Part shown: one piece after another, positions 1 through 47,500 of the stretch
Position numbering within the stretch: position 1 is the first letter of the stretch
How the letters are laid out: each line of letters opens with the position of its first letter
Assembly: GCA_918797485.1 (NCBI GenBank)
Contig: CAKKNE010000004.1
Span: 4,898,001 to 4,962,000 of the forward strand
Reading direction: 5' to 3'
DNA length: 64,000 nucleotides
Origin: Pelagomonas calceolata
Taxonomy: Eukaryota
Made by a program: the position numbers and the translations under genes
The notes under the pieces: generated by a model
Told to the model about the DNA's origin: nothing
The model's input: only the letters and a program-made list of their open reading frames with translations
The model's database searches: none

Positions 1-3000
1 CGGGCCTGGAGCTTGGCCTTCAACGCGTTCTCGATCGCGTCCTCCCTGCGTGGCGAGCGACCGGTGAGTCGCGCAGACACACGGTACCGCGTCGCGTCGA
101 CGGCGTAGAAGGAAGGACGCAAGGACACCGGGTCAGCACCACTCGCTTGCGTCGATCTGGCCGTCGCGATCCGTGTCGAGCACGGCGAGCGCCTGCTGGA
201 GCCGCGCCGGCTCGAGGAGGTACATCAAGTTCTGGTTGCCGCAGGTCTGGAGGAAGTTGATCACCTTCTTGTTCGCCTTGACGGCGTCGATAATTTCGTC
301 CTTGTCCAGGTACCCCGACTCGTCCACATCTATCATATCGAAGACCTGGCGAGCCATGGTCAGGAACTCCGCCGAAAAGTCCTCGTCGGCGGCGGCCGCG
401 GCGCGCGCGCGGCGCTCCCGCTCCTCGGAGAGCTGCTCGAGGCGGCGCTTGAGGCCGCGCTGGATCGCCTCCTCCCTGCGCGCGACCGGCGTTATGCCTC
501 TACGTGGCGACGACGCGTCGATGGCGTGTGAACCGTGGAGGACGCCGCGTACCGCACCACTCCTCGACGTCGATCTCGCCCGAGCCGTCGGTGTCGAGGG
601 CCTTGAGCGCCTTCTTGAGGCGCGCGGGCTGCAGCAGGAACTGCAAGTTCTCCTCGCCGCAGTTCTGCAGAAACGAGATGACTTCTTGATCCGTCTTCAC
701 GGCCTGGACGATCTCGTCGATCTCGAGCGTGCCCGACATGTCCTTGTCGATGAGGTTGAAGCACTTGCGCGCGGCGTTCAGGAAATCCGAGGTAAAGGCC
801 GCGATCTCCTTCGCCGCGTTCTTGGCGTCGAGCTCGCGCTTCGCCGCGCGCGCGGCGAGCTTGTTCTGCAGCGCGATCTCGATGCACTGCTCCCACTCGT
901 CCGCGTCGATGGTGCCGTCGCGATCGGTGTCCATCTCCGCGAGCGCCTTGTCGAGGCGCGACGGCACCAGCAAGTACTGCAAGTTTTGGTTGCCGCAGTT
1001 GCAGAGGAATTTTATCACTTTTTTGTCGTTCTTCACGGCATCCACAATCTCAGCTTTATCGAGCGTTCCCGAGTCGTCCTTGTCGATCATTTGGAAGACC
1101 TCGCGGGCCGCGTTCAAAAATTCTAGCGTGAATTCGGCGTCGGCCCGCTCCGCGGCGCGCTGGCGGCGCTCGCGCTCGTCGGCCAGCTGCTCCAGGCGCT
1201 TCGCGAGGCCGCGGTTGATGGCGGCTTCCCCTGCGTAGCAGACAAACGGTCAAAAGAGCGCATCTCGCGGACACAAAAAGACGCCGGGCAGTACACTCTT
1301 CGATGTCGAGCTCCCCGGACTTGTCGGTATCCAGGGCATCGAGAGCTTTGTCGAGGCGCGGCGGGTGCAGCAGGAATTGCAAGTTTTCTTCGCCGCAGTT
1401 TTTGAGGAAGTCGATCACTTTTTTGTCCTCCTTCACGGCCTTGACGATCTCGGGCTTTTCGAGCGTGCCAGAGTTGTCCTTGTCGATCATAATAAAGCAT
1501 TGCCGGGCAGCCTGCGCGCGGGACCGTCGGTTACATACGCGAAGGCTTCGGACGCCGGGGGCCGTGCGTTCAGGAACTCGCTCGTGAATTTGGCGATCTC
1601 CTTCGCGGCGGCCTTGGCCTGGGCCTCGCGCGCCTTGGCGCGCTGCGCGAGCTTGTTCCGCAGCGCCGTCTCGATCGCGTCCTCCCTGCGCGGAACGTCG
1701 ACGGTCAGCCGCGTCGACGCCGTCGCCGCGTAGAAGCCCCCCCCCCCCAGCTTCGGACTCCGAAACGCACCACTCGTTGCAGTCGATCTCGCCGTCGCGG
1801 TCCGAGTCCAGCTGCGCGAGCGCCGCCTCGAGGCGCGAGGGGACCAGCAGGTACTGCAGATTCTTATTGCCGCAGTTCGTGAGGAAGTCAATCACTTCTT
1901 TATCTGCTCTGACGGCCGTAACGATCTCTTCCTTGTCGAGGAAGCCCGAGTCGTCCTTGTCGATCATTAGGAAAACTGCACGGGCCGCGCTGAGGAACTC
2001 CGCGGAGAATTCTTCGTCCGCTCTCGCATTTGCGCGGTCGCGGCGCTGGCGCTCGATCGACAGCTGCTCCAGGCGGTGCGCGAGGCCCTTCTGGATCGCC
2101 GTTTCCCATTCCTCGACATCAATCTCGCCGGACTTGTCCTCGTCGAGGACGGCCAGCGCCTTCTTGAGGCGCGGCGGGTGGAGGAGGAACTGCAGGTTCT
2201 CCTCGCCGCAGTTTTTCAGGAAGTCGATCACTTCCGCATCGCTCTTCACGGCCTCGACGATCTCGGCCGTCGACAGGGTGCCGCCGCCGTCCTTGTCGAT
2301 CAATTCGAAGCAGCGCCGCGCGGCGGAGAGGAACTCGTTCGTGAACTCCTCGATCTCCTTCGCAGCGTTCTTGGCGTCGAGCTCGCGCTTGGCGGCGCGC
2401 GCGGCCAATTTGTTTTTGAGGGCGTCTTTGATGCACGTCTCCCATTCATCTATATCAATATGCCCGTCGCGGTCCGTGTCCATCGCCGTGAGCGCGGCCT
2501 CGAGGCGCACCGGCACGAGCAGGTACTGCAGGTTTTTATTCCCGCAGTTAACAAGGAACGAGATAACTTTTTTGTTCGACGTGACGGCCTCGACGATTTC
2601 AGCTTTTTCCAGCGTCCCGGACTCGTCGACGTCGATCATTTCGAAGCACTTCCGCGCCGCGTTCAAAAATTCGACGCTAAATTCGGCGTCGGCCTTTTCC
2701 GCCGCGCGCTCGCGCCGCTCGCGTTCGGCGGCGAGCTGCGCGAGGCGCTTCGCCAGGCCGCGGTTGATCGCTTCCTCCCATTCCTCCATGTCCACCTCGC
2801 CGTCCTTGCTCGTGTCCAGCACTTCGAGCGCCTTGTGCAGGCGTGCTGGCTGAGTAAGGAACTCGAGGTTCGGCTCGCCGCACGTGGCGAGGAAGCTCTT
2901 CACCTTTTCGTCTTCCTTGACGGCCTTGATAATTTCGCCCTTGTCGAGCGTGCCGGAGTTGTCCTTGTCGATGAGGAGGAAGACTTGCTTCGCGGCCTGC

Positions 3001-6000
3001 GCGCGGGACCGTCGGCGACGCGTCGACATACACGAAGGATTCGGACGCCGGGGGCCGTGCGTTCAGGAACTCGCCAGTAAACTCTTCGATTTCCTTCTGC
3101 GCCGCCTTCCTCTGCGCCTCGCGGGCCGCGGAGCGCTGCTCGAGCTTGTTCGCGAGCGCCTTCTCGATGCACTCCTCCCTGCGCGGAACGTCGACCGGTG
3201 AGCCGGCGACGTGCTTCTACGCCACACGCACGCCATCGCCGCGTCGAAGGCGACCCAAGATTCCAGACTCCGACACACACCACTCGTCCGCGTCGATGGA
3301 GCCGTCGTTGTCCGTGTCCATCGCCGCGAGGGCGGCCTCGAGGCGCGACGGGACGAGCAGGTACTGCAGGTTCTTGTTGCCGCAGTCGGTCAGGAAATTT
3401 ATTACTTTTTTGTCCGCTCTGACGGCGTCCACGACCTCCTGTTTCTCGAGCGTGCCGGACTCGTCCTCGTCGATCATTTGAAAGACCTCACGCGCCGCGC
3501 TGAGGAACTCGGCGCTGAACTCCTCATCCGCTTTCGCCGCCGCGCGGTTGGCGCGCTCGCGCTCCTTCGACAGCGCCTCCAGCCGCTTGGCGAGGCCGCG
3601 GTTGATCGCCTCCTCCCCTGTGTGGCAGACGCGTCGGATCAAATCTCTGGGACAATAGGAGGACGCCGGGAAGCAGTACATTCGTCGATGTCGATCTCGC
3701 CCGATTTGTCGGTGTCCAGGATCGCGAGCGCCTTCTGCAGGCGCGGCGGGTGCAGCAGGAATTGCAGATTATCTTCGCCGCAGTTCTTTAGGAATTTGAT
3801 CACTTTGGCGTCCTCTTTCACGGCTCGGACGATCTCATCAGTGCTGAGCGAGCCGCCGCCGTCGGTGTCGATCATCTGGAAGCACTCGCGCGCGGCGTTT
3901 TTGAACTCGTTCGTAAATTCCTCGATCTCCTTCGCGGCCCGCGCGGCATCGAGCGAGCGCTTGGCCGCGCGGTCCGCGAGTTTGTTTTTGAGCGCGATCT
4001 CGATGCACTCCTCCCTGCGCGGAACATCGACCGGTGAGCCACAAGCACGTCATCGCCGCGTCGAAGGCGACCCAATGTTGCAGACTCCAAAACGCACCAC
4101 TCGTCCGCGTCGATGGTGCCGTCGTGATCCGTGTCCATCGCCGCGAGGGCGGCCTCGAGGCGCGCCGGCACCAACAAGTATTGGAGGTTCTTGTTGCCGC
4201 AGTTCACGAGGAAGTTAATCACCTTCTTGTTCCCGCGGATGGCGACAACCACCTCCTCCTTCTCGAGCGTGCCGGACTCGTCGACGTCGATCATCTCGAA
4301 CACCTTTCTAGCGGCGCTCAGGAACTCGACGGAGAAATTCTCGTCCTCAGCCCGGGCCGCCTTCTCGCGGCGCTCGCGCTCGTTCGCCAGCTGGTCGAGG
4401 CGCTTGGCGAGGCCGCGGTTGATCGCCTCCTCCCCTGTGCGCAAATCAATCAGTGAGACGCCGTCGAGCAGGCGTCGCGTCGATGGCGTCAGGTCACGAT
4501 TCAAGACGCCGGGACGGTACATTCGTCGATGTCGACCTCGCCGGACTTGTCCGTGTCCAAGATTTCGAGGGCCTTCTGGAGGCGCGGCGGGTGCAGCAGG
4601 AACGTCAGGTTGTCCTCGCCGCACGTCGTCAGGAACCGGATCACCGTCTGGTCGCTTCGGACGGCGTCGACGATCTCCTGTTTGGACAGCGACCCGCCGT
4701 GGTCCTTGTCGATGAGCTGGAAGCACTCGCGCGCGGCGTTTTTGAACTCGAACGTGAATTCTTCGATCTCCTTGCTGGCCGCCTTTGCGTCGAGCTCGCG
4801 AGCCTTGGCGCGCTGCTCGAGCTTGGCCGCGAGCGCGGTCTCGATCGCTTCCTCCCTGCGCGAAACGTCGACCGGTGAGCCGCGAAACCGCCCGTCCCCC
4901 CTCGCGAGACGCGTCGACGGCGTACGTCTACGCCCCCAGCACGCAGTCGCCGCGTCGAAGGCACCCCAAAATTTCAGACTCCGAAACGCACCACTCGATG
5001 GCGTCAATTGTTCCGTCCCTGTCGGTGTCGAGCACCGCCAATGCGGCTTCGAGCCGCGACGGCACCAACAGGTACTGGAGATTCTTGTTGCCACAGTTCG
5101 TGAGGAAGTTGATCACGTCCTGATCAGCCCGCACCGCGCGAAAAATTTCTTCTTTTTCGAGTGTGCCGGAGTCGTCCTTGTCGATCATCTGGAACGCCTT
5201 GCGCGCGAGGCCCAAAAACTCGGTGGAGAACTCTTCGTCGGCCGCGGTGCTCGCGCGCTCGCGGCGCTCGCGCTCCTTCTCGAGGTCCTTGAGGCGCTTC
5301 GCGAGGCCGCGGTTGATCGCCGTCTCCCTGTGTGCGTACGATGTTATGTTGACACGTAGCGGCAACGACGCGTCGATAGCGTCGAGGCGACGTCATGTGC
5401 CGTCGACACGGCCGCGAGAAAGAGTCTATATGTGATCACGGACGCCGCAAAACGCGCCATTCCTCAATGTCGATTTCTCCGGACTTGTCCTCATCCAGGG
5501 CCTCGAGCGCCTTCTTGAGGCGCGGCGGGTGGAGGAGGAACGACAGGTTCTCGTCGCCGCACGTCGTCAGGAATTTTATTACTTCCTTGTCAGACTTGAC
5601 GGCCTCGACGATCTCCGAGTGGCTCAGGGTCCCGCCCTGGTCCTTGTCGATGAGCTGGAAGCACTTGCGAGCTGCGTTTTTGAACTCGGCGGTGAAGTTC
5701 TCGATCTCACGCTGCGCGGCGGCCGCGTCGGCCTCGCGCTTCAGCGCGCGCTGCGCGAGCTTGTTCGACAGCGCGTCCTCGATGGCGTCCTCCCTGCGTA
5801 GCAAGCGACCGGTGAGTCGGACACGGCGTAGAAAGAAGTAAGGACACTGCGTCAGCACCACTCCTGGGCATCAATGTGGCCGTCGCGATCCGTGTCCAAC
5901 TGCTGGAGCGCCGACTCGAGGCGCGCCGGCACCAACAAATACTGGAGGTTCGGCTCGCCGCAGTTGACGAGGAAGTTGATCACCTTCTTGTCGGCGCTGA

Positions 6001-8699
6001 CGGCGTCGATGACCTCCTGCTTCTCGAGCGTGCCGGAGTCGTCCTTGTCGATCATGCGGAAGACCTTGCGCGACGTCGACAGGAAGTCGAGGCTGAACTG
6101 GAGGTCTTCCTCGCGCGCGGCGCGGTTCCGGCGCTCGCGCTCCTTCTCGAGGTCCTTGAGGCGCTTGGCGAGGCCCCGGTTGATCGCGCTCTCCCCTGTG
6201 TGCAAATAACCGGTGAATCATGATTCAGCCGCGGGCGGAGCGGACGCGTCGCGAAGCTCTAGCATGAATACTACACCGGGCCGTGCATTCGTCGACGTCG
6301 AGCTCGCCCGACTTGTCCGTGTCGAGGATCTCCAAGGCCTTCTGCAGCCGCGGCGGGTGCAATAGGAACTCGAGGTTCTCGTCGCCGCACGTCGTCAGAA
6401 ATTTAATGACTTCCTCGTCCTTCTTCACAGCTTCCACAATCTCCTCCTTGGACAGCGTCCCGCCTCCATCTTTATCGATGAGCTCGAAGCAGCGCCGCGC
6501 GGCGTTCAGGAACTGCGTCTTGAAGGCGTGGATCTCCCTAGCGGCCGACTCCTCCTCGCGCTTCCGGATCTCCTCCTCGGCCATGCCCTTGCCGATGTGG
6601 CGCTTGTGGATCTCGATGTTGCTAATCTTGACCTCGGACTGGGCGACGACGTCCTTGCCGAAGCCCGCGGCTTCCAAGGCCGCGGCGATGGCCTCCTCGT
6701 CGGTCGCGCTCTCCAAGAAGATCTCCATGACCAACGACCCGGCCTTGACGCCCTGGACGTGCACGTGCCGCGCCGTGACGTCCGCGCCCGTCTCGGTCAT
6801 GACCTTGCCCGACATCTTCTCGGCCATCTGGCCGCGGAAGCTCTTGTTCGCCGACCGCGGCGTGAAGTCGGGGATCGTGGCGATGAAGGACACGCCGCCG
6901 AGGCTGCGCATCTCGGCGGGGTCGACGGGGTCGCCCGCGCGCGGCGACTCGCCGGCGCGCTTCCTAGATTTCCGCTTCGCGCGGCGCGCGCGAGCTCTAG
7001 CTTCCGCGTCCTTGTTCGAGGCCATGGCCTGCTCCTCGAGGGCCTTGTAGTCTCGGGCCAAGCCACCGGCGCAGGGCTTCTCGATGATCGCCTTAAATAT
7101 ATCCTTGGGGATCTTGAGGCACTCGCACTCGGCCAGAGCAATACACGTCGCCGCGCGCGGCGCGCCCGTCGTCAGGGACAGCTCGCCGAAGAAGTCGCCC
7201 GTCTCGAGCGTCGGGCAGACCGAGTCGTTCGCGCCGGCGACGTAGCGCGTGCACTCGACGGAGCCGTTGAGGATGACGAAGAAGTCCGAGCCCGGCTCCG
7301 ACTCTCTGAGGATGAGCTGGCCCGTGTCGTAGTCGTGCGCCGTCGACGCGTCGACGATCTGCGCGACCTTGCTTCCATCTAACCCGCCGAGCAGCGGCAC
7401 GCGCTTCAAGGCCGCGGCGTAGAGCATGCGCTTCTTGTGCTGCGAGTCCTTGAGGATCTCGCTGAGCGTCAGCTTGTCGAGGGCCCAGGCCGAGCACGCC
7501 GTCGCCGCCGTCGCCGTGTGCGCGCGCGCCGCCTTCATCACATCCAAATCGCCGACGTGGCGCGTGCCGTCGGCCGCCGGCAGGTTGCGCTGGCCCGTGA
7601 AGCCGCCGTCGGCGTCGACGGCGACGTGGCCGTCCTCGATCAAGTAGAGGTAGTCCGTGCCCTTGCCCTGCACGTACAGGCGCTGGCCGCCCTGGAAGAC
7701 CTTGCGGCGGAACGCGTCTATCACCACTCCCTGCTCGCGGCGCGTGAGCTTCGCGAGGGCCGGCACCTTGCAGACCTGCTCGAGGAGCCAGCCCGACTCG
7801 CGCTCCGTCTTCTTCGACGCGAACGGCACCCACGCGCCGTCGCCGTCGATCTCGGGTTTGGTGGGAACGGGGTCCGGCTCGTAGGCCGAGTCGTCCATCA
7901 TGAGCGCCGCCGCCTCCGCACCCAAGATCGACATCTGCTCGAGGCCCTTGCGCGTCGACGAGCCGACCTCGTTGAGGTCGCCGGCCGACGACGCCCTGAC
8001 CAACTTGCGCAGGGCGTCGAGGACGACGGGCGGCCGGCAGTAGGGGTTCAGCACGCGCAGCGACCACTCGACGAAGTCCTTGCGCGGCAGCCGCGCGGCC
8101 TCCTGGCCCTGCGTGCCCGACGCGTCCGGCGCGCCGAGCTCGACGTCGGAGAAGTCCTCGCCGCCGCCGCGGCCCTCGCGCATGCCCTGCTTCAGGGCGC
8201 CGTCGTACTTGCCGACGGCCACGCGCGCCGCGTTGTCGAGCGCGGCCATGTCCTCGAAGGCGACGCACGACTTGCCGCGGCGCAGGCCCATGAACGACTC
8301 GAGCGCGCGGCCCAGGCTCAGGAGCAGGATCCCCAGCTCCGACGGCGTCAGCGCGCGCGCGCGGCCGAAGTCGAAGAGCGCGAACATGCGCCGCGCCTTG
8401 GCCTTGACGCCGTCCTCGCGGTCGCCGCCGCCGCCCGGCGCCGGCGTGCGGCACACGGCCACGGCGCCGCAGAGGAAGCTCAGCGCGTTGATCTTGCCTT
8501 CCTCGCCGGCCTCGAGCTGCGCGATGATGGCCGCCGCGTCCTTGACCTTGGGGCCGACGACCGCCTCGAGCTCCTGCGGCGTCACCATGAACGCGCCGTC
8601 GAGCTGCGTCCGGTGGCGGATGATCATCTCGTCGACGTCGCTGAGCGACAGCCGGCTGAACTGCGCGAACGGCCCCGGGAGGGAGACCGAGGCGCCCAT
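1..8699 (-). CDS. Giant Ca2+/cyclic-nucleotide-binding protein: N-terminal MGASVS, two cNMP-binding (PKA-R-like) domains, then >=16 tandem 112-aa repeats each with two EF-hand loops plus a coiled-coil linker; 3' end lies outside the window
   Basis: Start at ATG 8699. cNMP motif GDFFGELSLTTGAPRAATCIA; repeated IDKDxSGTLxxxE and DTDxxGxIDxxEW loops. Removing 14 introns gives one continuous frame of ~2,499 codons: 46-139, 476-557, 1231-1294, 1512-1567 (GC), 1686-1770, 2997-3060 (GC), 3179-3280, 3618-3679, 4015-4097, 4435-4520, 4856-4991, 5328-5457 (GC), 5794-5858, 6196-6286 (GC). Confidence 0.9.
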
Positions 8700-8700
8700 C

Positions 8701-8746
8701 CTTGCTTGCTTGCTTACTTGTTTGCTAGCTTGCTTGCTTGCTTGCT
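8701..8746. repeat. (CTTG)n / (CAAG)n microsatellite immediately upstream of the EF-hand gene start
   Basis: cttgcttgcttgcttacttgtttgctagcttgcttgcttgcttgct read directly. Confidence 0.8.
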
Positions 8747-9340
8747 ACTCAGGGCAGCTTCTTTCGAGCGGCTGCTTGCTGTTGCGGCGTGCGGGCAGCT
8801 TCCGACGACTGCTCGCGCAACACCGTGCGCTGCGGGTACCTTTTTGCGGTATTTTACACGCTTCGCAGCTAAAGCAGCGCCGTCGAGCCGGAGAAGCTAG
8901 TGGGCCCGGCAGTTATTTTTAGCGGCTCGCTGGGCTCGTCGCGATGAAAATGGCTGCCCGGGCGCTTCCCGGCGTCCCTACGGAGCCTTGCGACGCGTGG
9001 GCTACCTGGGAGTGAGCCCTGGTACCGGAGCCACTGCGAGTGTTCTCCTGTGGGCGTAAGAGTCATTTGCTGCTAGTGAGTGCGCTCAGCCGGCCGTTCG
9101 ATCCTTCTGTCAGCCTCTGATCCGACCTCGCGATATATCGAGCAAAGTGACTTATCCATGGAGGGGGGGGGGTAAAGTATGAAAGGTACTTAAGGTACTT
9201 TCATGCGATGTTGCGCCTGCCTGCGCCTGCGCAAAAAGTACCAGCTGGTACCTCTGTGCTTATTTTTACAGACACGCACGGCATATTTGACGTGTCCACG
9301 CGTGCTGGGGCGTGGTTATTTACCGCACTGCACGTCTAGA

Positions 9341-9486
9341 CCACTTGTAGCGCCTGCCAGAGGCTCTGCACGTCTGACCACTTGTAGCGCCTGCCAGAGG
9401 CTCTGCGCGTCTAAGACCACTTGTAGCGTCTGCCAGAGGCTCTGCGCGTCTAAGTCCACTTGTAGCGTCTGCCAGAGGCTCTGCAC
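9341..9486. repeat. Minisatellite, ~4 copies of a 37-39 bp unit, just upstream of the GPx start codon
   Basis: Unit ccacttgtagcg(c/t)ctgccagaggctctgc(a/g)cgtct(aa)g(a/t) starts at 9341, 9378, 9417 and 9456. Confidence 0.9.
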
Positions 9487-9494
9487 AAAACGAA

Positions 9495-9992: not shown

Positions 9993-10011
9993 CAGTGAGT
10001 GAGTGAGACGG

Positions 10012-11310: not shown

Positions 11311-14300
11311 CTACTTCGCCATCTGGTGCGCCACCAGAGCGTAGTAGTGCGCCTTCTTCGCCAGGAGCGCGTTGTGCGTGCCCTCCTCCAGGAGGCCACC
11401 CTTGCCGAAGACGCAGATCTTTGAAGCCGACCGGATCGTGCTGAGGCGGTGGGCTATCACCAGCGTCGTACATGAGGACGCGGCCACGAGCTCGTCGAGG
11501 GCGGCCTGCACTACTTTCTCAGAATTCGCGTCGAGCGCAGACGTGGCCTCGTCTAGTATCAACAAACGTGGTTTTCTCACAATTGCGCGGGCAATCGCGA
11601 TTCGTTGCTTCTGACCACCAGAGAGTTGTATACCGCGACTACCAACCTCGGTGTCAAAACCGTCCGGGAAGCCACTGATGAAGTCGTATGCATTCGCGAG
11701 CCGCGCCGCGCGCTCGCAGTCGCTTCGCGTTGCGCCCTCGCGACCGTACGCTATGTTTTCGAATATACTGCCAGTGAATAGCACAGGCTCCTGACTCACG
11801 AGCCCGATACTTGCGCGCAGAGCAGATACGTCCCAACTTCGCACATCGGTGCCATCCACAGAAATACGGCCGCCGTCGACGTCGTAGTAGCGCAGTATTA
11901 GTTGAACCGCCGTCGATTTACCGCTGCCGCTTTCCCCCACGAGCGCGCAAACTTCACCCGCTGCGATGGAAAATGTGAGCCTGTGTGGAAATCAACCAAT
12001 GAGTTAGGTTATCCTGAGCATAATTGCGAGAGACCATCGTCAACCTCCACGCCATCGAGCCAGCGCAGTCATGTGAACAACATCGCGTCGATGGCGTGGA
12101 ATCTCCACGCCATCGAGCAGACGCAGTCACAGGGACAATTGTCGCGTCGATGGCGGGGTACCATGAATTTGATTTCTACACGGACGTGAGCCGCTCATAG
12201 ACCGGGCGGTCGGCCCGCGTCGGGTAGGCGAAGGCGACGTCCTCAAAAGAAACCGTCGCCGCGGCGCCACCCTTGCCCCCGTCGTAACCGGACGGCGCGA
12301 GCGCGTCGATGGGCGATTTGAGGTGGACGATGTCCCACGCTTTCTTGGCTGCCGTCATGGCCTGTAGAAGCGACCGATGAGTCGCGGCGCCGTGGACTTC
12401 CAAACACCGAGCTACTAACCTCGGCCTTGTCGATGGAATCACCAGCCACCGCTCCGATTCCAAACGCCATGAATATAATTACGAGTAGGACCGTCATCAA
12501 GTCGGAAAAGGAGACCCAGCCCTTGCGGAAGAAAATACCGCCGACGTAGTACTGGAAGGCTGCGCCTAACAGAATGGTCGCCGCCTGTGTGCAACGGCGG
12601 TGAGAAAAGACTATCCTCACAAACTAGATCGACGACGCCGTGAAATTTGATTTGTGCACGGGTTGCTACCGCGACACCGGCGCCCAGGCCTCCCGCGAGG
12701 CCCTTTCGAATGGCCTGTCGTTCCGGCAACTCCAAAAAGTCGTCGAACTTTCGCGAGACGGCCGCCTCAATTCCGTAAGCTCGCACTGTTCTCATGTGTA
12801 AAACTGCTTCGGTCGCGATGCCACCGGCCCTGACCAACGACTCCTGGGCAGCTTCCGCGACTCGAGCCACATAAGAACCGGTCACCGCAATAGGTGCGAC
12901 AATAAGAGGGATTATACCCAGCGTGACGAGCGTCAGCCGCCACGACGCGTCGAACGAGATGCCGAGGCCTGTGCGGAAACCAGCCAGTGAGTTGGGTGCA
13001 TCGAGAAGGCGGCGCGTCGATGGCGCGAGAAGCTCCACTGCATTGATTTTATGCACTGACAGAGACCGCCCACAACGATAACGACCATTGCAACGGATAG
13101 GGCGATGCGTTGCCCGACGAGGGCGCGTACGGCTTGCGTGTCTTGGGCGAGTCGCGACGCTAGAGCTCCGGCGGCTCGCTCGGGCGCATCGTGCCCTGTG
13201 TGACAACCGCGTGACAAAAGGCTACTGATCCTCTCCGTCTGGCTTCGCGTTGATGGTGACCGCATCGGCGCGGCCGGGCTAAGTCAATACGAAGAGGGAA
13301 AATTGGACGCCGATTGCGCGCAGGAGATCGGCTGGCGGACCATGGCCTCAAAGGACTTGGTCCGAACATCCCTAACAACGTGCTCGGCTGCACGACTCAA
13401 GCCGTAGGACTTCCAGAGCTCGCCGATCGCGGCACATCCAGCCATCGCCACGAACATCAAGGCCCAGAACCGGGCCTCGCGGCGCATATGGCTCGTCGAG
13501 TGGTTGAAGAACGCCACGAGAAACTCAGCCATCAAAAAGCCCAGCAGCGGTTGCGTCGCGCCGCCGATGGCCGAGCCCACGACGCCCAAGGCGACGAAGG
13601 GCCGCTCGTCGCGCGCCGTCCGCCAGAGCCAGCTCACGACGCGAGATGCCGTCGCCTTGTCCACAGGCGCCGGCGCCTCGACGTCGTCGGCTTTCGTCGA
13701 CCCGGCGTCCGTGTCCGTGACGGCCTCGGCGAGGACGACGTCGTCCTCGGCCACGGGCGCGACGCTCGCGACGCTCGTGCCGCCGTCGTCGGACGACGAC
13801 ACCTGCGCCTCGACGAGCGCCTTGTACGCGCCGCCCTTGGCCATGAGCTCGTCATGCGTGCCGCGCTCGGCCACGGCGCCCTCGTTGAGGACACATATCT
13901 GGTCCGCGCGGCGGATCGTGCTGAGGCGGTGGGCTATCACAAGCGTCGTCCGCGCCTTCGAGGACGTGATGCTGTCGAGCGCCTCCTGGACGACGCGCTC
14001 GGACTTGGCGTCTAGGGCCGAGGTCGCCTCGTCGAGGACCAAGATTTCGGGGTCGCGAACCAACGCCCGCGCAATTGCGACGCGCTGGCGCTGGCCGCCG
14101 CTCAGCTTTACGCCGCAGTCGCCGACCTCGGTGTCAAAACCGTCCGGAAAGCCGCTGATGAAGTCGTAGGCGTTCGCGAGCCGCGCCGCACGCGCGCACT
14201 CGTCGCGCGTCGCGCCACTGCGGCCGAACGCGATGTTCTCAAAGATAGTTCCAGTGAATAGCACAGGCTCCTGCGCGACCAGCCCCATCTTCGACCGGAG

Positions 14301-35500: not shown

Positions 35501-38500
35501 CTCGATCTCCGCGAGCTTCGTCTTGTACCTGCATTGATACCGTCGCGACACGGCCACAGCTCTCTCAGAGCCACGTCGACGGCGTCGCGGTGGCGGCGCG
35601 TCGCGTGGACGCCATCTTCCCAAAGTTCAACTTGAAAAATTGATGAGCATCGGACGCTGAGTCACCGTACATGACCTGGTAGGCCGCGATGAAGCTGAGG
35701 TACGACTTCGGCGTCTGGTAGACCTGGCGCCGCATCTTCTCGAAGTACTCGAGGCAGACGTCCGTCGTGTGCGCGTGGCACATGCCTGCGTTTGATGGAC
35801 GCCGTCGCGACACGGCCTCTGGACATCCACGCGACGCGGAGGCTCTCGCGTGGCCACGTCGACGGCGTCACGGTGCCGTGAGACGTCTTCACGAAAACTT
35901 CAAGTTGAGAAATTGAAGGAAACTTCAACGCCGCGTCCGCGCCCATCGTCGTCATGACGTTGTTTTTGATGTCGTCGTCGCAGGCCATCTCGAACTTGCC
36001 CAGGAAGCCCTTCGAGACGGCGACGAGCGCCTCTTCGGGCCACGGCAGGAACCAGTCGATCGTCGGCGCGGACACGAGGCCCGGGAACCGTCTCGCCCTC
36101 TCGGGGAATTTCGGGTTCAAGGGCGACATGCAGAGCATGAGGTGCAAGTTGTCCCTTGTTACATCAGTTAAATACGCCTTGAGGTTGTCCTGCGTCTCTT
36201 CGACGCCCGGCCGATTTTTGATGAAGGACGGCCGCAATTCCGCCTGTGTTGATACAAACAATCACGAAACTCGTCGAGAAGCGAGGCACGTCTCCATGAA
36301 GATGGCGTGGAGCGCGTGACGACGCTCTCGGACGCCATCGACGCGACCACGTCAAGTTCAAGTTCATTTTCTGCTCTGAGTCACTGACCGTCATGGCCAT
36401 GATCTCGTCCTTCGCAAACAAGCCGGGCACCTCGCCCGTCATGAGCACACTATTCAACGTCTCGAGGAACGACTCGGCCTTGATCTCCGACTCGGTGAAG
36501 AGGAACGTGGTCCCTTTGCCGGCGCCGGCGTTTCTGTATAGAGTGCGGATGTCCTCCAGCAGCGAGGCCTGGTTGTACGTCTTCGTGAGCGTGATCTGGA
36601 AGCACATGAATCGACTGATGTAACTGGAGAGTCGTGTTAACGACTGTTTACCACTACCACCCACACCTACAAGAAGTCCAGAGCCGCGCGGCATCTCCAT
36701 CAATCTGTTGATCTTCAGCATGTGCTTCAACGCGTCGTCGAAGAGCACCAGGTCCATTTTTTTGGACGGGTTTTCCTCGTTGTACTTGTCGAGGAACATG
36801 TCGACCCTAGATTTGATCTCTTTCAGGGTTCCTCCCGGCTCATACACTTTAGGAGCCTCCTCCTGCATGACGCCGTCCTCGTCGTAGATGTCGTCTCTCA
36901 AAAAGTTGACCATCAGTAGTTCACTGTCAGAAGGAATACCGGCCACGACGGCCTCGTCAAACACTTCCGTGATGGTCTCTTGGATCGCGCCCGTGCAGAC
37001 GTCCTTGTCTTTATAGTTCGTGAGCTTGTCGTTGAAGACGCGCTCGCACCTGCGCGGAACGACCTCGTCTGATGGCCACGAGACACTTCAAAACGCCGCG
37101 AGCGCACTCGTGCTTCCAGACGTTGACGAGCGTCGAGGGTGGTGCGACGGTGTACGTGCCCTCCTGGCCGCGCGTGCCGCCCGTGTTGATCGAGTCGTGC
37201 GGGACAGCTAAAACGCCCTGGAAGACGCGCGACAGGTCGCGCATGTTGAAGACGTAGTGGAACCTGCGCGGCGCGTCGCGGTTCGTATCTCGGCGTGCGA
37301 CGGTCGACGCGCGTCGTGTCCACCTCATGATGAAGTGGGTGCATTCGGACGCGACGCGGTCCGAACGGCCTCTTCAGCAAAAAAGAAACGACCCACAACA
37401 TGATACGGGACGCCGCAACGGACTTCGCCGGCGTCGGCAGCATCTTGTTCTGCATGAAGGTCCACAACTTGATCGTGGCCTTCGTTAGCGCGTTCACCAC
37501 TAGCTTGAGATCCGTCTCCGTCTGGCGCGCGGGAAAGCGCCCGGCGAGCATCTGGCCGTAGATGTCGTTGATGCTGTTGATGGACGGCGGCGTCAGGTTG
37601 ATCGTGTAGAACTGCCGCTTCAAGCGATTCGGAATGTCATTCCTCCCCCCACCGGGGTGGCCCATGGCCCCGATGTAGTAGACGTCCTCGCAGGTCTTGA
37701 AGTCGCCCCTCTTATCCTTGTCGAGGAAGCAAAAACCCGAATATTCGACCAATTGGCGCATCAATTCGAGCGTCGGCTGGTCCGTCCACTTGTTGACCTG
37801 TGTGTGATACGTGTCGAGGCGCCTCCACGCCATCGACGCGCGTCGTCTCTAGGAATGATGGAAGTGGGTAGTTTCTTTGTCGAATTTGAGTGCATTCGGA
37901 CCGCGTCGAGTATATCGAGTCGCGATCTCGCTCAATATCGAAAAAGAGACCACTCACGGCCTCGTCTGATGGACACGAGTCTGATGAACTACATGACGGG
38001 ACGCCGCGAGCGCACCTCCGGCATCGACATGTCGTCGATGAAAAACGTCATCTTGTTGCCGTTCGGCGGGCCGAAGTTCTTGCCGCCCCTTTTGTCGAGC
38101 TCGGCCTCGACGGCGTTCTGCGCGCCGAACCTGCGCGGCGCATGTCCGTCAAAGCGGTCCGAATTCACTCATGGCCACGCGTCGAAGGCACCACTTCAAA
38201 ACGCCGAGGTCGCACATCGTCGTCGCGAACGAGTAGTTGACCGTCCTCGTGAGCATGTCCAGCGACTGCAGGAACATCCTTACCGTTGCTGTTTTTGCGG
38301 TACCGGCAGAACCAATAAGTAGAGCGGCCTTCTTCTGCTTGTGGGCCTGTTTAATTAAGTACTGCGTCCGCTCCGCGTCGACCGTCGGCACCAAGATACT
38401 CGCAAAGTCCAGCGTGTCGCCGTCGGGGTACTTCCAGACCGGCGCGCTCCACTCGACCCAGTCGCAGCTCTCGTGGTCGAGCTTAAACTCGAAAACATTT

Positions 38501-41500
38501 CCAGAGGGCATGTGCGTCTTGTCTACTGAAGACATCCACTCGTTGAGCTTGTCGCGGTCGTCGGCCTCGAGTAACGCGCCAAAGGACCACGTGAAGGCCA
38601 GGATGAAAATCTTCTCCAAGTTGACGGCGAGGTCTCCCTGATCAATTTTGATGGCCGTTTGCACCGGTGCCCCGGCTTCTAACGTAAAGCCGTCAATTAA
38701 GGTCAGCATGGCCTGGAGAATCGCCATCCGACCCGTCGCGAGCTTCGGGGACGTCTGCCTTTGTAAAAAGGAAAAGGCCGGGCCCGGCTCGATGGGGTCT
38801 GTGTGGAACGACACCGTCGCGAAACTGCCGGCAGTCACGGTGGCGGAACGTCGCATTGGCGCCGTCTTCCCAAAGTTCAAGTTGAGAAATTCGAAGAAAA
38901 TGACGCCGAGTCACTGACCGCACTTGCCGAGCCACTTCTCCTTGAGTTGTGTAAGAATGTCGCGTTGATCCTCCGGCCTCGTCTGCACCCACGCCGTGAA
39001 CAGCGCCTCCCAGTCCAATTCCACTTCAGACAAGTAAATGATGCCCGCGCGAGAGACCGTCGCCGGCGACGCGTTTTTGAGCGTCTCGACCTCGAACATC
39101 ATCTTGACCTGCGCGTGGCGGCGGTTTCGCGCGTTGCGAGGGGTTCGCGGCGCTCTCACTTCCTCAATACGACGCGTCTCCATCGCAGGAGGCCAGGCGT
39201 GGTCTCAGTTTCGATTCTGGGGCCGTTCTCTGGCGTCGCGTCGACGGCGTGAAGGCACCGCAGGACGCCGCGTGTCACGTTGTCCGTCATGGGCATGCGG
39301 TCGCCGTTCGCCAGCGTGAGGATTTTATTGTCGTCCAAGACCGTGTTCAGGTCCTCGATCCAGATCGCGTCGACGGGCCCGTCGGCCGTGATCCACGTGT
39401 TGTAGGGGTTGTCGCGGTTGCAGGCCTTGGCCCACATGGCCGCGAAGACGCCCGTCGTCCACTCCTGGCTGACGGGGTCGACCTCGCCGTACATCTGCTG
39501 CGCGCGGATCGCCTTCGGGTTGAATCGACACGCTCGGTGCTGCAGGTCCATGATCTTGTGTAATACTCTCCTCAACAAGTAGAAAATGGTCGACTTGCCG
39601 CCTCCGGTGGGCCCGACGAGCATGATGCCGTGGCGGACCTGTGTGTGACATGTGTCGAGTCGCGACCTCGCCCGAAACCACTCTCATGGACGTGAGATGG
39701 ACACCAGTCGCGTCGATTGCGTATGAGCCCGACGCCATCGCCGCGACCCGTGAAGATTGCTCTCTGCCTCTCTCGGGAGTCCGAGGCGACCGCGTGGTCC
39801 GAAACGCCTCAAAATCGAAAATGAGACCAGCCACGGCCTCCTCTCCTGGAGACGACGCGTTTGAATGAAGTGAAGGCGCCTCTACACTTCAAAACGCGGA
39901 GACCGCACCTTCGTCGTCTCGTAGAGCTGGATGACCTTGCCGACCCAGCCGCCGCGCGTGCCCTCGGACCCCTCGGGCCCCTCATAAAAGATCTTGCCGT
40001 CCTTCTCGCATTCCTCCATCAACGCTTGTTCCATGTCGGGGTATTCGGCCTTCGGCGGGGCGCTCATGGAAGGGAACAAGTCGGCCAAGATCGATAGGAA
40101 CAGGGGCACGTCCTGGGCCACGAGCTTCGACAGGTTCATGTCCCGCAGCGTCTGGTACACTAAGTAAGATTCGGGCTTGTCCATGTTGTTTCTCTTGGAG
40201 GCGCCCATCGTCCGCAAAACACTGAGGATGTTCCGCAGGCCCCAGTCGTAGTGCTTTTGATTTGATAACTGTAATTTACACGTGTCATAAAGGACAAAAA
40301 ATTTGAAGGACAGCATCTCGTACTGCGAGTAGCCTGCGCGGGATCATACTCGCGTTGACGCCATCTTCCCAAAGTTGAAGTTGACGCCGAGTCAGCACCG
40401 ACACTACACAATTTCACCTTCTTGATAATTTGAAAATTCGGCACCATCATCATGACGCCGCGGAAGAGGGCCTTGAGGTTCTCGGGCAGCGCTTGGCGGC
40501 CCGCGTAGCCCGGGTTCATCGTGATGAAGTAGCCGACGGCCTTGTTGAGGCGCACCTGTGCGTGGCGGCGGTGTCGCGCGTTGCCGCGGTGTTCGGGCGC
40601 TCTCGCTTCATTGATACGACTCGTGGCCATCAGAGGAGCCGGAGTCACGACGTCGGTCCGAAGGCGCCTCCACACGACGGGACGCCGGCGCGCACGTCCT
40701 GCGGGTCGCCGGGGAACTGGAAGAAGGCCTTGTCCGCCTTCTTGGCGTTCTGGATGCTCAAAACTTGTTGCGCCACCACTGACAAAACGGGTAAGCGAAT
40801 CCGGTTGAACTCGTCGAAGCAGCCCCAGATGCCGCTCTGACACAAGCCTTTAAAGATCTTGGCGCAGTCCTTGTAGGACATCTGGTCGCCGCAGTTCGTG
40901 ACGACCACGAAGATGCCTAAAGATGCGCCCAGATCCTTCGTCGTTTCCGTCTTGCCCGTGCCGGCCGGCCCGGCCGGCGCGCCGCCAAACGACATGCCCA
41001 GGGCCTGGGCCAACGTGATGTAGCACCGATCCGTGAGCGGCGTCACAACTAGTCGCTCCTTCGACCCTAGATACTCGTAGGAGTAGGCGAAGTCCTGCGC
41101 GGGGCGTCGTATTCACTGGAAGCGGTCCGAATGGCCTCAAAATCTCTCAAAAAACTACCCCCGGCATCGTGCGATGGCCACGAGTCACATCAACAAAGTG
41201 AAGGCACCTCCACACGACGGGACGCCGCGAGCGCACGAAGTTCGTGATCGCGATGACGACGCTCCCGTCCGGCGAACAATCATCCGAAGCTTGGGGCCGC
41301 CAGTAGAATCTAGCTTGTTTGGTCCACTCGAAGTCGTTCGCGTCGTGGATGAGCTTCTTCTTGTAGAGCTGGAACATCTCCGTCGTGACCTGTGTGGCAC
41401 GGACACCGTCACGAAACTGCCGCGGGAGGCGCGTAGACGCTCGTGCGGCCACGTCGACGGCGTCATGTTGACGCCATCTTCACAAAGTTCAAGTTGAGAA

Positions 41501-44500
41501 ATTGAAGGAAACCACGCTGAGTCAGACGTCCTTTTGGTGCACGTGGATCGTAACTAAAGTTTCGATCTTCTTGCGGTTGACCTTCGTGCCCAGGTCCTGC
41601 AGGCACCACGACGACAGCTCCAGCAACAAGTTATTTTGGCGCGCGTTACACTCCTTCATGCCCGACTTCTTTCTTTTGCACTCCTCGAGCGCCGTCTGCG
41701 TGTCGGCCGTCCACATGAACTGGATGCCCAACAGAGCGATTTGCGCTTTGCTGTCGTCGACGAAGCGTCTTAACCCAGGAATGTCGACGCCCGTGGCCGC
41801 GCAGTACTCGCCCGCGGTCGCGCATAAACTTTTTACTGTTAACTGCATGTAATGTAATAAGGTCGTGAGCCAGTCCTCGATGTTGCCCGACGCCGGCACG
41901 GGCTTGATGAAGGGGAACTCCTCGTGGCCGACGCCGCCGGAGCCGTGGATCGTGCGGATGATGGCCTGCGCGGAGCATCGCGGTTCGGTCCGAATTCACT
42001 CAAAATCACAAAATAAACCACCCACGTCATCGTGCGATGGACACGAGTCGTATCAGTGAAGTGAAGGCGCCTCTACACGACGGGACGCCGCGAGCAGACC
42101 TTGTCCTTTTTGTCGTGGTCGACCTTCTCCAAGGCGTCGAAGACGGTCTCGTAGTGGGCGTTCATCGTCGTCGGGTCGCTGCCCTGCGACAGGATCTGGA
42201 GCAGCTTCGAGTTGGAGCAGAAGTAGAACCGCGGGAACTTGCTCCGTTTTTGCTCGAGGTAGCCCTCGAGGGCCTTGGAGCACTTTTCTAGTTCGCCGTA
42301 CATCTCGGGCAGCTTCGCCTTGAGCATCTCGTTCTGGCAGCAGGGGACGACGAGCGACGTCGACTGCGACACTTGCCTGCGCGGAGCATCACGATTGGCC
42401 TCAAATCCGAAAAAGAGACCACCCACACCATGCTACGAGTCCCAGCGACAACGTGAAGGCACCGTAGAAGACGCCGAGTCCGCGCATGATCTTCGTCCAG
42501 TCCTTGTCCACTTTACTAAATTTTTTGGCCTCCATCGGGAGCCTGTGTGGACATCAAAGTTCAACTTGGGCTTCAAGTCGGGGTCTCTCTCCCTTGAAGT
42601 GAGGTGCTGCTCGCTCCAGTCGGTCGAGTGTGTCTCTCGGAGATCGTGTCCGAGTTTGGGCCTCTCCGAGGACCGCGGCGCCGAGATCGCGAGACGCGAA
42701 TAATTTCCACACAGTGGCAGGCTGCTTGGCGATGTCGCCGCCCGTGAAGACCGATTCGAGGGAGCACCACATGAGCTGGACCTTGACCCACTGCTCGAGC
42801 GTGTCCGCGGCGTCGTTCAAATTAGCTAACAGCTCCGCGGCCTCCTCGCGGAACGGCGCGACGTGGCGCATGGTGAGGAAGGTCTGCATCTGCATGATGC
42901 TTTCTTCCAGTTCTTCGGTCAGGATGCCCGTGCCTTGTAAAGTAGGTATAGGTCTAGATTTCCAGTCCTGCGTGGGAACGACGCCGTCACGTCTCACGAG
43001 GCGCGTGGGCGCCCTGGTGATCATGAAGACCACGTCAAGTTCAAGTTCAATGAAGACGCTGAGTCAGTACCTTGAACGTGAACTCGCGGACCTCCCAGAT
43101 GCCGTTAATTTCCTTTATATCTTGTTCTATTTTTAATTGTTTATCGGCGCCGTCCGTGATCTCCAGCACCTCATCCGCCACGTTCTCCAATTTGAGGGAA
43201 ATGATGAATTCTAATGTAAAATCCGCGCTCTCCTGGTCGAAGTCGTTCTTGACCAAAGCTCGGAGCTCGTCCCAGTGCCGCACCATCACGCTGGGTTTGG
43301 CGAGTTCCTGGAGCAAGGGCAGCACGATCTGGAAGTCCTCGATGCGCTTATTTAAATTTTTATACGCGTCAAAAGCTCTAAGTCGACCGGGCATCTTCTT
43401 GCACCGCAAGGCAAAGTTGTCCATCGCCGCCGTCATGTCCTCCATGCCCGCGACGATGGCGGCAAATTGCAGCAGGTTCCACTCGTTCATGTTCTCCTTG
43501 ACGTCCGTGTAGAGCGAAAACCTGTGCGTGATATATCGCGTCCCGTCGTGGGGAGGCGCCTCCACGCCATCGAGGCGACTCGTGTCCATCTCACAGTGAA
43601 GTGGGTGGTCTCTTTTTCGATTTTGAGGCCGTTCGGACCGCGTCGATATATCGAGTCGCGACCTCGTCTTCCAGAGACTCAAATTCGACAAAGAGACCAC
43701 TCACGGCATCGTGAGATCGTATCAATGAAGTGAAGGCGCCTCTACACGTCAAAACGCCGAGATCAGACAGCTGGTCGAACAGCTTTATGTCCTTTTCCGT
43801 CTGCGCGAGCTCCGGGTATTCGCTAAATGGCAAAGCGAAGAGCTCCTCGCCGTTGTGGGCCATCTCGTACTTGCGCACGCACTGGGCCAGGTGGTCCTTG
43901 GCGAAGCGCAACCGATCGAGCGCCACCTCCGGGTCGACGCCCGGGACGCCCGGCCCCGCGTTGATCCAGTTGTCCCTGAGTTTGTCGACCTCCTTCCTTA
44001 GGACATTCTTGCTGACTTTCAGGTTCTTCTTCTGGACGTGCTGCTTGTTGCTCATCTCCTCGGCCCTGTGTGGGATCATGCAATCACGAAACTGCCGCGG
44101 CTCGCTCACGAGACCCGTAGACTCTCTCACGGCCCCGTCGAGGGCGTCGCGGCGGTGCGGCATCGCGTCGACGCCATTTTCACAAAGTTGAAGTTCGGAA
44201 AAGGCTGGAAACAGACGCTGAGTCAGCACCTTACGGAAGCGGTCGCGACCATCTTCCGCCAGCCGCTCTCGAGCACCGTCCGCTTGTCGACTTCCGACTT
44301 GTCCATGAAGCCGGACGGTAAATTGCGCTCGAGCATGGCGTACATCTCCTCGATGGGCCGCATCTCCATGCTGATGCCTGCGTGTGACACGTATCGAGTC
44401 AAATTCGACGAAGAAAGCACCCACGTCATCGTGAGGAAGTGAAGGCACCGCCACACGTCAAGACGCCGCGAGCGGACCCGACTCGCGCTCGCGGATCGTC

Positions 44501-47500
44501 TTGAAGAGCGCCATCATGACCCCCAAGGCGTCGAGGTCGTCGTCGGCGACGACCTTCTCGAGCTTCACGGACGTCGCCCTTATGTACTCGGACAGGTCGT
44601 CGAGCTTCTCGCGCGCCTCCTTGTGCCTGCGAGGAACGACGCTCTCCGAGCCCCATCGAAGTTGAAGTTCAACACTGAGTCACGCAGGTTGTTGCAGTAC
44701 GTCTTCTGCCAGACCTCGACGTCCGCTTTCAATTGCCCTTTGAGTTGGGTGGTATTGAGAGATAACGCCCCGATGTTGTGGCACGTCGCGATCTGCCCGA
44801 TGTCGTCGTCGGTGCCCTGGAAACTCTTGAGTTGGGAAGCGTAGTCCTCGAGCGACGGATTTGTAGAGAGAAACTCCTTGTAGGCCTCCTGCTTGTCCTT
44901 CTGCCAGAGCCAGTCGAACTGGCCAAAACTATGTAAGTAATCTGCTACCGTGTTCCGAATGCCTTGCAAACTACCGGTGAGTAGCAATGCCACGCGCACG
45001 ATTTCGATGTCCTTCGTTATTCTCTCAAAGAAGCTGGGGGCGTCCGCGGTTCTATATTTCTCCAAAGCGACAATCCTCCAATCTTTCACGCGCTTGAAAC
45101 ACCCTAAAACGGCTTGCGCCGACCGGTTGATGCAATTTTGCACATCATCAAGAGACGGCGACAAGACGCATTCCTCTGAACCGAGACGAACCCCGATCTC
45201 GAAGAAGGGTCTCGCCGTGTAGAGAAAACCAGAAGCGACCCGACAGGCGATCCTCTTCTTCAGCGCGTTCAGCGAGTTCTTCGCGCTATGCAATAACGCC
45301 TGGTACATGAAGTGGTTGTAGTGCTTCTTGAGCTTGGCGACCTCGTCCGGTTCTACATGCGAACCGGGCTGCTCGAAGCGGTAGGCCATGATGACCTGCG
45401 CGGAGCATCGCGGTGATGTGGCGTCGCGTCGACGGCGTCCCGAGGACCACGGAGACTCTCGTGGGATCACGACGACGGTCTCATGAAGGCGCTGTCTCGT
45501 GAAGACGCCATCGACGCGTGACACGCCGCGACGGCCCCGACGCGGTCCGAAACAGCTCAAACTCGAAAAAGAAACGACCCCCGGCATCGTGCGATGGCCA
45601 TGAGTCGCGTCGATGGCGTAAGAAGGCAAAAGGACGCCGAGATCGGACCTGGACCAAATCGTCGACGGCCGCCTCGATCTCGAGGTTCTTTCCTGTTAAA
45701 ACATCCACTTCCACCTCGATGTGGTCGTGCTGGTTGTGCACAAAGTCGTCGACCGTGAACGACTGGTCGTCGGGCAGGTCCACCAACCGCGTGCGCGAGA
45801 CGACCTTCAAATTGTTCTCGATGCGGTGCTCGATCACATCATTGATGCCCGTCACGAGCTGCTCCAGGCGCTTCAAACCGTGGTGCACGTGCGCTTTGTA
45901 GCTATCAATGTTCATCGACGTCCAGGTCAGCGTCACCATGCCCGGCCGGAGCTCGGCCTCCATGTCGTTGAAGTGCGGCCGCAGGACCATGGCCGTGACC
46001 GGAATCACCATGCTCACGACGCGATCATATTCATTTAAAGCCCAGTGCAGGTCGTTGTAGTAGGACTTCAATTTGTCCTCTTGAAATAGAATTATTTTGG
46101 CCGACTCGGGCACCTCGACGCCCATGCGATCCAGGCACTTCGCCTCCCTCACCAACTGCAACAGCTCCAAATCAAAGTTCACGTACAATTTTTGATCTTC
46201 CGGATGTCTTATGATCAGAGTAGCTTGTAAACCCGATTTGGCTTGATCTATACTAGAAACCCAGGCCTGGTGCCAGAGGTACTCGAAGGCGACCAGCGTA
46301 CGAGCCAATTTGTTGTACATCTTGATGATGCGCCGCGCCCCCGGTCCATCCAAGACATTTTGATTTAATTCAAATTGCCGCATCGGGCCCTCGATCCTTT
46401 TTAACAGGTGTCGGCTCCACGTGATGTTCCCGGCCACCGGGGGTAGATTGCGGGGAATGGGCGGGTCGTGCTTCTGCTTCTCGTAGAGCTGTTGCACCTG
46501 CTCGAGCTCGATGCCTGTGCGGAGCATTTCCGTCAAAGTCCGAACGGCCCCAAAGTCGAAAAAGAAACGACCCCCGGCATCGTGAGATGGACACGAGTCC
46601 ATCCAAGGATGTGAAGGCACCGCAACGCCTCAAAACGCGGAGATACGCACCATAGTTCTGGAAAATGACGTTGAGCTTGCTGTCGAGGTCCGACTTCAGC
46701 GTTTCTCTTTGCAGTATTGCTTGGAACGTCGCCAGCAGCCCCAGACTGTTTTCGATGGACGTGATGTTCTCGAAGGACTGGTTGATGAAGTGCTGGAGGG
46801 CGCCTTCGAGGTCCGAGATCTTGACCTGCGCGGCGCATCGCGGTCGCTCGACTCGGTCCGTAGACTCTCGTGCGGTCGCGTCGGCGGCGTCGCGGTGGCG
46901 TGACGTCGCGCTGACGCCATCGCGGCGGCGCTGTCGCGTGAAGACGCCATCGACGCGACCGCCGTCTCTCTGACACGCCGCGGTCGCTCGACACGGTCCG
47001 AACGGCCCCAAACTCGAAAAAGAGACCACCCACGTCCATCATTCCTGGAGACGATTCGTATTGAAGTGAAGGCACCGACGCGGGACGCCGGGATCTTCAC
47101 ATTAAATTCGACGTAGTCCCTATCAAATTTGTTGTTGTGGTAGTCCAGCAGATCGTGGCCCTTGCCCCGGAACTCCTTCACGATCCGGTGGAAGCGCGCG
47201 ATGAGCTGCTCCATGCCCTCCAATTTATTGACACTGAGCGACTTGAACTGATCAATGGTCGAAAACATGTCTATCAATTTAATGACGCGCCGGCAGAACA
47301 AGTCGAACTTCCCGAAGATGTGCATCTCGTTGAAGTCGAACTGCTTGCCCTTGGGCATCTGCTGGAGCTTCTTTTTCGTGAGTCGGTACTGGTCCTGGTA
47401 CGCCTCCGAGAGTTTTAAACAGGCTTCTAAGCGCCGCACGAGGTCTTGTTCATTGGACTCCCAGAGCGTTTCTGCACGACTAGCGTCGGAGTGGCAGACT

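Follow-up and report, generated by a model that had tools for sequence, protein, structure and literature searches.

This analysis concerns a short motif, C(G/A)GCGT(C/T), that sits at a near-constant distance inside the donors of introns in a 64-kb window of Pelagomonas calceolata DNA (the whole stretch of 64,000 nucleotides [nt] analyzed, from contig CAKKNE010000004.1; GC content 64%). We annotated 56 introns in four genes, all on the minus strand: 35 in a dynein gene, 14 in a cNMP/EF-hand gene, five in an ABC transporter gene, and two in an unnamed gene. Introns are cited below by donor coordinate, and GY stands for GT or GC.

29516 to 48648, minus strand: dynein heavy chain gene with a DHC_N1 Pfam match; 35 GY..CAG introns of 58–275 nt, a 4620-codon frame with a single terminal stop, and 15 RNA joints.
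1 to 8699, minus strand, continuing past the window edge: cyclic nucleoside monophosphate (cNMP)-binding/EF-hand repeat gene by Pfam match; frame open to the edge, 14 short introns by frame closure only.
11311 to 15668, minus strand: ABC transporter gene by Pfam match; frame closes, five introns (13321, 13066, 12669, 12419, and 12191).
About 25.6 kb, minus strand: unnamed gene with two introns; frame open over the 332 codons checked.

Among named homologues, the closest come from pelagophytes, and the dynein protein is 70%–75% identical to a Chrysophaeum taylorii dynein. Intron boundaries were set by hand from the sequence and from RNA joints, with the motif already known, and were then checked by frame closure. 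The calls are partly circular for the 38 introns without an RNA joint, including every EF-hand intron, and these rest on frame closure. RNA data comprised three raw-read runs from one sample and one contig run. Among the joints listed, 18 of the 56 introns are backed by joints compatible with GY-AG boundaries (15 dynein, 3 ABC). All 15 joints listed for the dynein region (of 93) are annotated dynein introns, and 3 of the 15 listed in the other RNA mapping (of 49) are ABC introns (12669, 12419, and 12191). The introns are precisely removed from mRNA, as judged by these listed joints for 18 of the 56 and by frame closure for the remainder, and intron removal yields an open reading frame in four out of four genes.

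The strict motif starts at +9 to +12 in 36 of 56 introns, compared with 6 of 1757 exonic GT/GC decoys. It is present in all four genes (dynein 27/35, EF-hand 7/14, ABC 1/5, unnamed 1/2), which bears out an earlier sequence-only reading that placed it 9–12 nt past the donor in at least 25 introns of four genes. That reading also quoted eight donors, all of which were found at their coordinates on the minus strand with CGGCGTC at +9 to +11; among them, only 34056 is a listed RNA joint, while 47100 and 45648 fit the ends of contig pieces. The exact heptamer CGGCGTC occurs in 27 of 56 introns. A looser frame, C-N-G-N-G-Y, starts at +9 to +12 in 55 of 56 introns and 66 of 1757 decoys, and at +3 to +8 in no intron, so that position and strand relative to the donor are fixed. 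In the best register, the 56 introns show C in 55, G in 55, G in 55, and T in 53, with positions 2 and 4 variable. The signal is better described as C-N-G-N-G-T than as CGGCGTC. All 15 RNA-confirmed dynein introns have the frame and 12 have the strict motif. The 14 cNMP/EF-hand introns, including 1294 and 1567, all show Y-R-G-N-G-T at +9 to +12. In the ABC gene, 13321 has the motif at +10 and 12419 has CGGTGTT at +11, while 13066, 12669, and 12191 are of a type that we call classic.

Five introns in the window are classic, with 8 bases resembling the downstream exon, an element left end at +9, and a matching CACAG end. By alignment, the dynein introns fall into family A (20 introns), family B (14), and the classic type (1), and the interior blocks of copies are 80%–97% alike where aligned. 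Representative sites, all on the minus strand, are as follows.

47084 to 47090: motif at +11 of intron 47100-46826, the sole family A or B intron with a clear 8-nt target duplication (7/8).
45633 to 45639: motif at +10 of family A intron 45648-45396.
42470 to 42476: motif at +10 of the GC-donor, family A intron 42485-42377.
34041 to 34047: motif at +10 of RNA-confirmed intron 34056-33934.
30581 to 30745: RNA-confirmed family B intron that has CAGCGTC at +11 and lacks a target duplication.
36244 to 36388: family B intron whose motif has three mismatches (CAGAGCA); spliced, with the joint in 31, 23, and 25 reads.
42543 to 42722: classic-type dynein intron with 8 nt, then CTGTGTGG, and the end CCACACAG, the ends paired.
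25007 to 25102: classic introner with 7/8 target duplication and 15-nt perfect inverted ends, absent from L090, a related lineage described below.
25560 to 25617: 58-nt intron with a GC donor and the motif at +10 (25602-25608), present and identical in L090.

The donors themselves are weak. None of the 56 introns begins with GTRAGT, as the sequence-only reading had noted, and 14 have GC donors. However, the suggestion that the motif stands in place of a canonical donor goes too far, as +5 G is retained in 40 of 56 introns and the exon carries A at -2 and G at -1 in 20 of 35 dynein introns each. We infer that the motif adds to a residual +5 G donor and does not replace it. Acceptors were described as mostly CGCGCAG or CACACAG without a polypyrimidine tract, and this agrees with our counts: 37 of 56 end in one of these heptamers, and the T fraction at -20 to -8 is 0.21, showing no pyrimidine tract. 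A branch-point-like A at -19 to -22 gave 22 matches. Read as its reverse complement, the acceptor end shows the motif frame (C-N-G-N-G) in 51 of 56 introns.

This mirroring, together with the classic introns, points to the origin of the motif. Classic left ends at +9 are CTGTGT, CCGTGT, CCGTGC, or CAGTGC, which share the C-N-G-N-G frame of the motif. Because classic left ends have this frame at +9 and the acceptor end mirrors it, the motif is very probably the left inverted-repeat end of an introner, a small DNA transposon that gives rise to introns. As an initial step, an element with ends CTGYGY...RCRCAG would have inserted with an 8-nt duplication; its right end would supply the acceptor, and the duplication a GY donor, placing the left end at +9. 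Duplications of 8 nt starting at the donor were found for 25102, 12191, and 47100 (7/8 each) and for one intron inferred in the lineage L091 (8/8), while the other three classic introns showed fewer matches.

The dynein set as a whole does not show this pattern. Positions +3 to +8 match the target 57 times compared with 56.5 expected (P 0.50), and the duplication signal is limited to +1 and +2, with position 2 matching 22 times against 16.4 expected (P 0.015). Shifts anchored on the motif gave nothing beyond one P of 0.045 among seven tests. Dynein targets start with GY in 29 of 35 cases compared with a 13% background, in family A more often (19/20) than in family B (9/14; difference P 0.06). 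In family B, the six bases before the motif are 82% alike while the targets are 23% alike, which suggests that the spacer was carried with the family or overwritten. Since +3 to +8 show no duplication while interiors are 80%–97% alike, families A and B do not fit a model of cutting at the motif with a new 8-nt duplication. The proposal that arbitrary donors derived from target site duplications are spliced therefore applies to the classic introns, to 47100, and to one inferred L091 intron, but not to the dynein set or to family B with its own spacer. Family B introns share a fixed spacer, and five of the 14 lie at targets without an initial GT or GC (noted for 38799-38918 and 31490-31613, and for 897-1021 in the lineage L115). 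Family B may therefore spread as complete introns that bring their own donor, and not by cut-and-paste of an element.

Symmetry between the two ends has also faded. Inverted ends are perfect in 25102, whereas families A and B mirror only the C-N-G-N-G frame, and motif position 2 is unable to pair with the acceptor A in 54 of 56 introns. Predicted folds pair the motif with -1 to -7 in classic introns 25102 and 42722, and several family A introns pair it near -6 to -14, as would be expected if the motif paired with the intron 3' end in an RNA hairpin joining the splice sites. Across the 56 predicted folds, however, partners are scattered from -1 to -256, no hairpin is common to all, and motif positions show no covariation with the 3' end (lowest P 0.29). 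We consider this explanation highly improbable and have rejected it, as it is largely refuted for families A and B.

Two further features of the elements were recorded. The family A intron 43522-43768 is a foldback, with its own 5' half repeated inverted in the 3' half as two arm pairs of about 40 nt each. A 14-nt module, CGCGTCGAYGGCGT, was counted 16 times within introns, in either orientation, and three times elsewhere (window positions 22775, 29380, and 63267); it may be a subterminal binding repeat. One copy (4458-4489) is covered by about 3000 RNA reads that originate elsewhere in the genome.

Comparison with related sequences suggests that the dynein introns are young. A metagenome scan yielded 65 dynein loci, of which six close ones were aligned in DNA and 19 distant ones by tblastn. 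All 35 dynein intron sites are empty in both L090, whose syntenic, genomic dynein has 98.3% amino acid and 81% nucleotide identity, and L091 (88.7% amino acid identity), with no length change within 15 nt at any site. With L091 as the more distant lineage, the simpler reading is that the introns were gained in the lineage of the window, and the alignments identify them as recent, length-neutral gains of introners. A third lineage, L115, shares the 34056 site, where it holds a rearranged intron with CCGCGTC at +10, lacks an intron at the 34216 site, and has an additional intron of its own with CAGTGTT at +11 and no target duplication. Three introns in a dynein paralogue (L136) have the same block at +10. 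Two introns are inferred in L091, one with TGGCGTC at +8 and a 63-nt one in which a perfect 8-nt duplication is followed directly by CGGTGTC at +9. In contrast, two dynein loci of unplaced affinity (L130 and L131) have ordinary pyrimidine-rich introns with no motif by eye. A 7/8 duplication and +7 motif in L120 were not used, as this contig looks chimeric (66% identity upstream and 85% downstream of the intron). At L120 712-983, a paralogous dynein exon is joined to a window-like exon across an intron at the 33096 position, which could reflect an assembly chimera or conversion through intron repeats.

Intron 25617, being present and identical in L090, is older by sequence comparison than the dynein introns. 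Its frame, and that of the L091 introns, would also be expected if the signal predates the elements, such that the pelagophyte spliceosome already read C-N-G-N-G-T near +10 and a transposon with a matching end became a genome-wide intron maker. The frame is found alike in classic, family A, family B, and unlinked introns, and the modal position +10 and the CRG start differ from the classic end (+9, CTG). Against this, no intron common to non-pelagophytes was identified, and the exact mirroring at the acceptor end is simpler under an inverted-repeat origin, so that we regard an older signal as improbable. Divergence between the window and L090 is very uneven. Over the dynein gene (L090 1-13582 versus window 29516-48648), 35 introns compare with none at 98.3% protein but 56% third-codon-position identity, while the region near 25 kb is 96%–100% identical.

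The sequence-only reading offered two options for the motif, a splice determinant or a terminal inverted repeat remnant. These options are not exclusive: origin from an inverted repeat is well supported, and retention for splicing is favored, although the evidence for it is indirect. In family A, the motif is the best-kept 7-mer, at 0.91 compared with 0.79 for the next separate block and a mean of 0.65. Interior sequence links 45 of 64 introns (window and loci combined) at 32 bits or more, with shuffles reaching at most 24.3 bits, and so the introns are not "otherwise dissimilar" as had been claimed. Among the 17 of 64 with no interior link to any other, 16 keep the C, G, and G of the frame in place. 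Deletions in the family alignments often start just 3' of the motif, and none removes it. Thus, the motif persists where the duplication and the matching of the two ends are lost and, for part of the introns, where interior likeness has gone as well, and the balance tips slightly towards retention for splicing. The claim that it is kept where the rest of the intron has decayed holds for family A and for introns without interior likeness, whereas in family B an interior block is kept equally well; a comparison of motif and flanking conservation, suggested as a check, accordingly gives a lead in one family and a tie in the other.

Several observations weigh against a role in splicing. The family B interior block (0.92) matches windows over the motif (0.90–0.93), so homogenization could keep the motif there. 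Recognition of both DNA ends by a transposase would equally produce the mirrored frame, which 51 of 56 introns have on the right. All the introns may descend from one element superfamily; with 45 of 64 linked and none among those compared shown to be ancient or older than the elements, descent explains part of the sharing, and the 56 introns are not independent. Splicing also takes place in introns that differ from CGGCGTC at three or four positions (36388, 12669, and 12191), making the exact heptamer dispensable, and GGCGTC occurs in intron interiors 24 times in sense and 17 times in antisense. Exonic GY followed by the strict motif is not depleted (6 observed versus 3.1 expected), and GY with C.G.GT occurs 19 times against 23.2 expected (P 0.20), in synonymous shuffles of three dynein coding sequences with low power; the motif is therefore not sufficient. 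The motif in 25617 says little, as its flanks are also 96%–97% alike in L090, and the L091 introns are inferred only, the 63-nt one leaving the frame open whether spliced or unspliced. An Rfam search of the window and of eight dynein loci among the 65 returned no match at all, and hence no small nuclear RNA (snRNA). An apparent asymmetry of CpG decay at the second CpG (15 changes of C to T or A, none of G to A) was discounted, as the copies are related and interior CpGs also change in one direction.

Much of this would follow if the motif were no more than an element end. Introns would then have it in common through descent, selection on mobility (transposase binding) or gene conversion would preserve it, and splicing would depend on GY and +5 G together with the AG of the exon, the branch point, and the acceptor. 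The mirrored acceptor, the classic introners that start with the frame at +9, the linkage among introns and the equally kept family B block, the undepleted exonic decoys, and the recency of all 35 dynein introns are each consistent with this account, as is the excess of GY at targets, expected if duplications gave the donors. It accounts less readily for ends that are now asymmetrical, with position 2 unpaired in 54 of 56, for the lack of duplication at +3 to +8, and for a core that unlinked short introns retain and that is the best-kept block in family A. We regard it as a real but lesser possibility.

Starting from direct observations of splicing, of dynein introns absent from two related lineages, and of a motif frame fixed in position and mirroring the acceptor end, we lean towards an explanation in which the motif descends, in altered form, from the left end of the introners (small DNA transposons) behind these introns and is kept as a fixed-distance marker for weak GT/GC donors 8–11 bases upstream. 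After the initial insertion, the left end in descendant families would have changed to C-R-G-C-G-T-Y and lost pairing with the right end, while the spacer would have turned into family sequence, either travelling along with the intron or being replaced through gene conversion. Only the C, G, G, and T of C-N-G-N-G-T would then be held, on the sense strand and at one distance, as expected of a site that is read in single-stranded pre-mRNA. One conceivable reader, a guess by analogy, is the U1 small nuclear ribonucleoprotein (snRNP), through its RNA or protein, bound downstream of the cleavage site and assisting the +5 G donor. The relevant part of one report describes U1 promoting a donor from downstream in human genes, both with engineered exon-specific U1s and at a natural PAH intron 11 enhancer (PMC10572768). 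A literature search found no pelagophyte snRNA. Loss of U1 snRNP is unlikely because the P. calceolata annotation, among the entries listed, includes U1-70K, U1C, and two Luc7 proteins; these entries include no U11.

A stronger version, which we hold to be doubtful, is that pelagophyte spliceosomes choose 5' splice sites by a ruler. A C-N-G-N-G-T core lying 8–11 bases into the intron, with a transposon left end as its source or its match, would be recognized through a variant register of U1/U6 or by a protein dedicated to it. Later families, having lost duplication and symmetry, would have propagated as entire introns with the core intact. If so, one inverted repeat would supply both the acceptor and the signal that positions the donor, and a transposon end would have become a lineage-wide splice signal. 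Introners whose donors come from an arbitrary duplicated GT or GC pose the question of how the spliceosome finds the donor, and a core present in 55 of 56 introns is a candidate answer. As the candidate signal comprises four bases, it is directly mutable. If upheld, it would exemplify the conversion of a transposon end into a splice signal, and gene models would benefit across a group rich in GC-AG introns. The contrast of 35 introns with none, against a lineage at 98% protein identity, also provides a clean system for dating intron gain.

Other features of the window are noted for completeness. In the EF-hand gene, some repeat units (1-6290) have an intron at a given repeat position where other units lack one, in two adjacent phases; this pattern may document gain, loss, or conversion among the repeats. 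For most reads over this gene (1-9300), the first-mate strand is the reverse of that seen for the dynein and ABC genes, which lie on the minus strand, and this suggests antisense transcription. A gene outside the annotated set holds another probable intron at 22731-22820 (minus strand), with a CGCACAG end; its donor was not placed, and the counts exclude this intron. A polymerase delta gene has a 44% match to a Pelagophyceae sp. polymerase delta subunit. Between it and the dynein gene, 27834-29104 contains no frame above 135 codons, is 71% identical in L091 over 1.3 kb, is partly missing in L090, and has no Rfam match. Neither viral contigs scanned at the protein level nor prokaryote genomes scanned by pattern gave matches; DNA pattern matches in viral contigs (83 and 5 loci) were taken as chance and left unexamined.

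Pelagophyte introners are already known. Our literature search found no account of the motif or of a role for it in splicing, within a coverage that did not extend to the sequence logos of Huff 2016 and of Guerin et al. 2022, which may bear on novelty. Guerin et al. 2022 described putative introners in P. calceolata, and the introns of the window fit the published style for Pelagomonas; the available text gives no motif and no splicing role, while the logo in their Fig. S3b may already show the block. Gozashti et al. (PMC9860276) list introner families from a Pelagomonas metagenome-assembled genome with target site duplication and terminal inverted repeat entered as "?", and in the accessible portions no internal donor-side signal is described and no CGGCGTC string occurs among the supplement rows listed. 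Introner families without either feature, and families with shifted splice frames, are recorded in the parts available (PMC9860276; 10.1101/2020.10.14.339549), and an element can carry splice sites.

Among the closest known systems is that of Aureococcus anophagefferens, in which, according to the sections available, the element brings one splice site and the target duplication provides the other (10.1101/2020.10.14.339549; PMC11282704). The introns described here resemble these in their carried and duplication-derived splice sites, 8-nt duplication pattern, common GC donors, and length-neutral gains. GC-AG introns are given as about 14%–17% in Aureococcus and Pelagomonas in the available part of another source (10.1101/2024.10.30.620910). 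Unlike the Aureococcus introners as there described, families A and B have no duplication past the first one or two bases, unmatched ends, a family-specific spacer, and a left-end core fixed at +9 to +12. By analogy, an intronic site that promotes a donor also recalls the human cases of U1 acting from downstream, so far as the relevant part of that report goes (PMC10572768). In Fritillaria borealis, the spliceosome has adapted to introns made by transposons, as stated in the accessible part of that study (PMC13326754), and there, as here, host machinery faces donors with which it did not evolve. Compared with Fritillaria as described there, boundaries in Pelagomonas stay GY-AG, and the candidate signal is a fixed intronic core.

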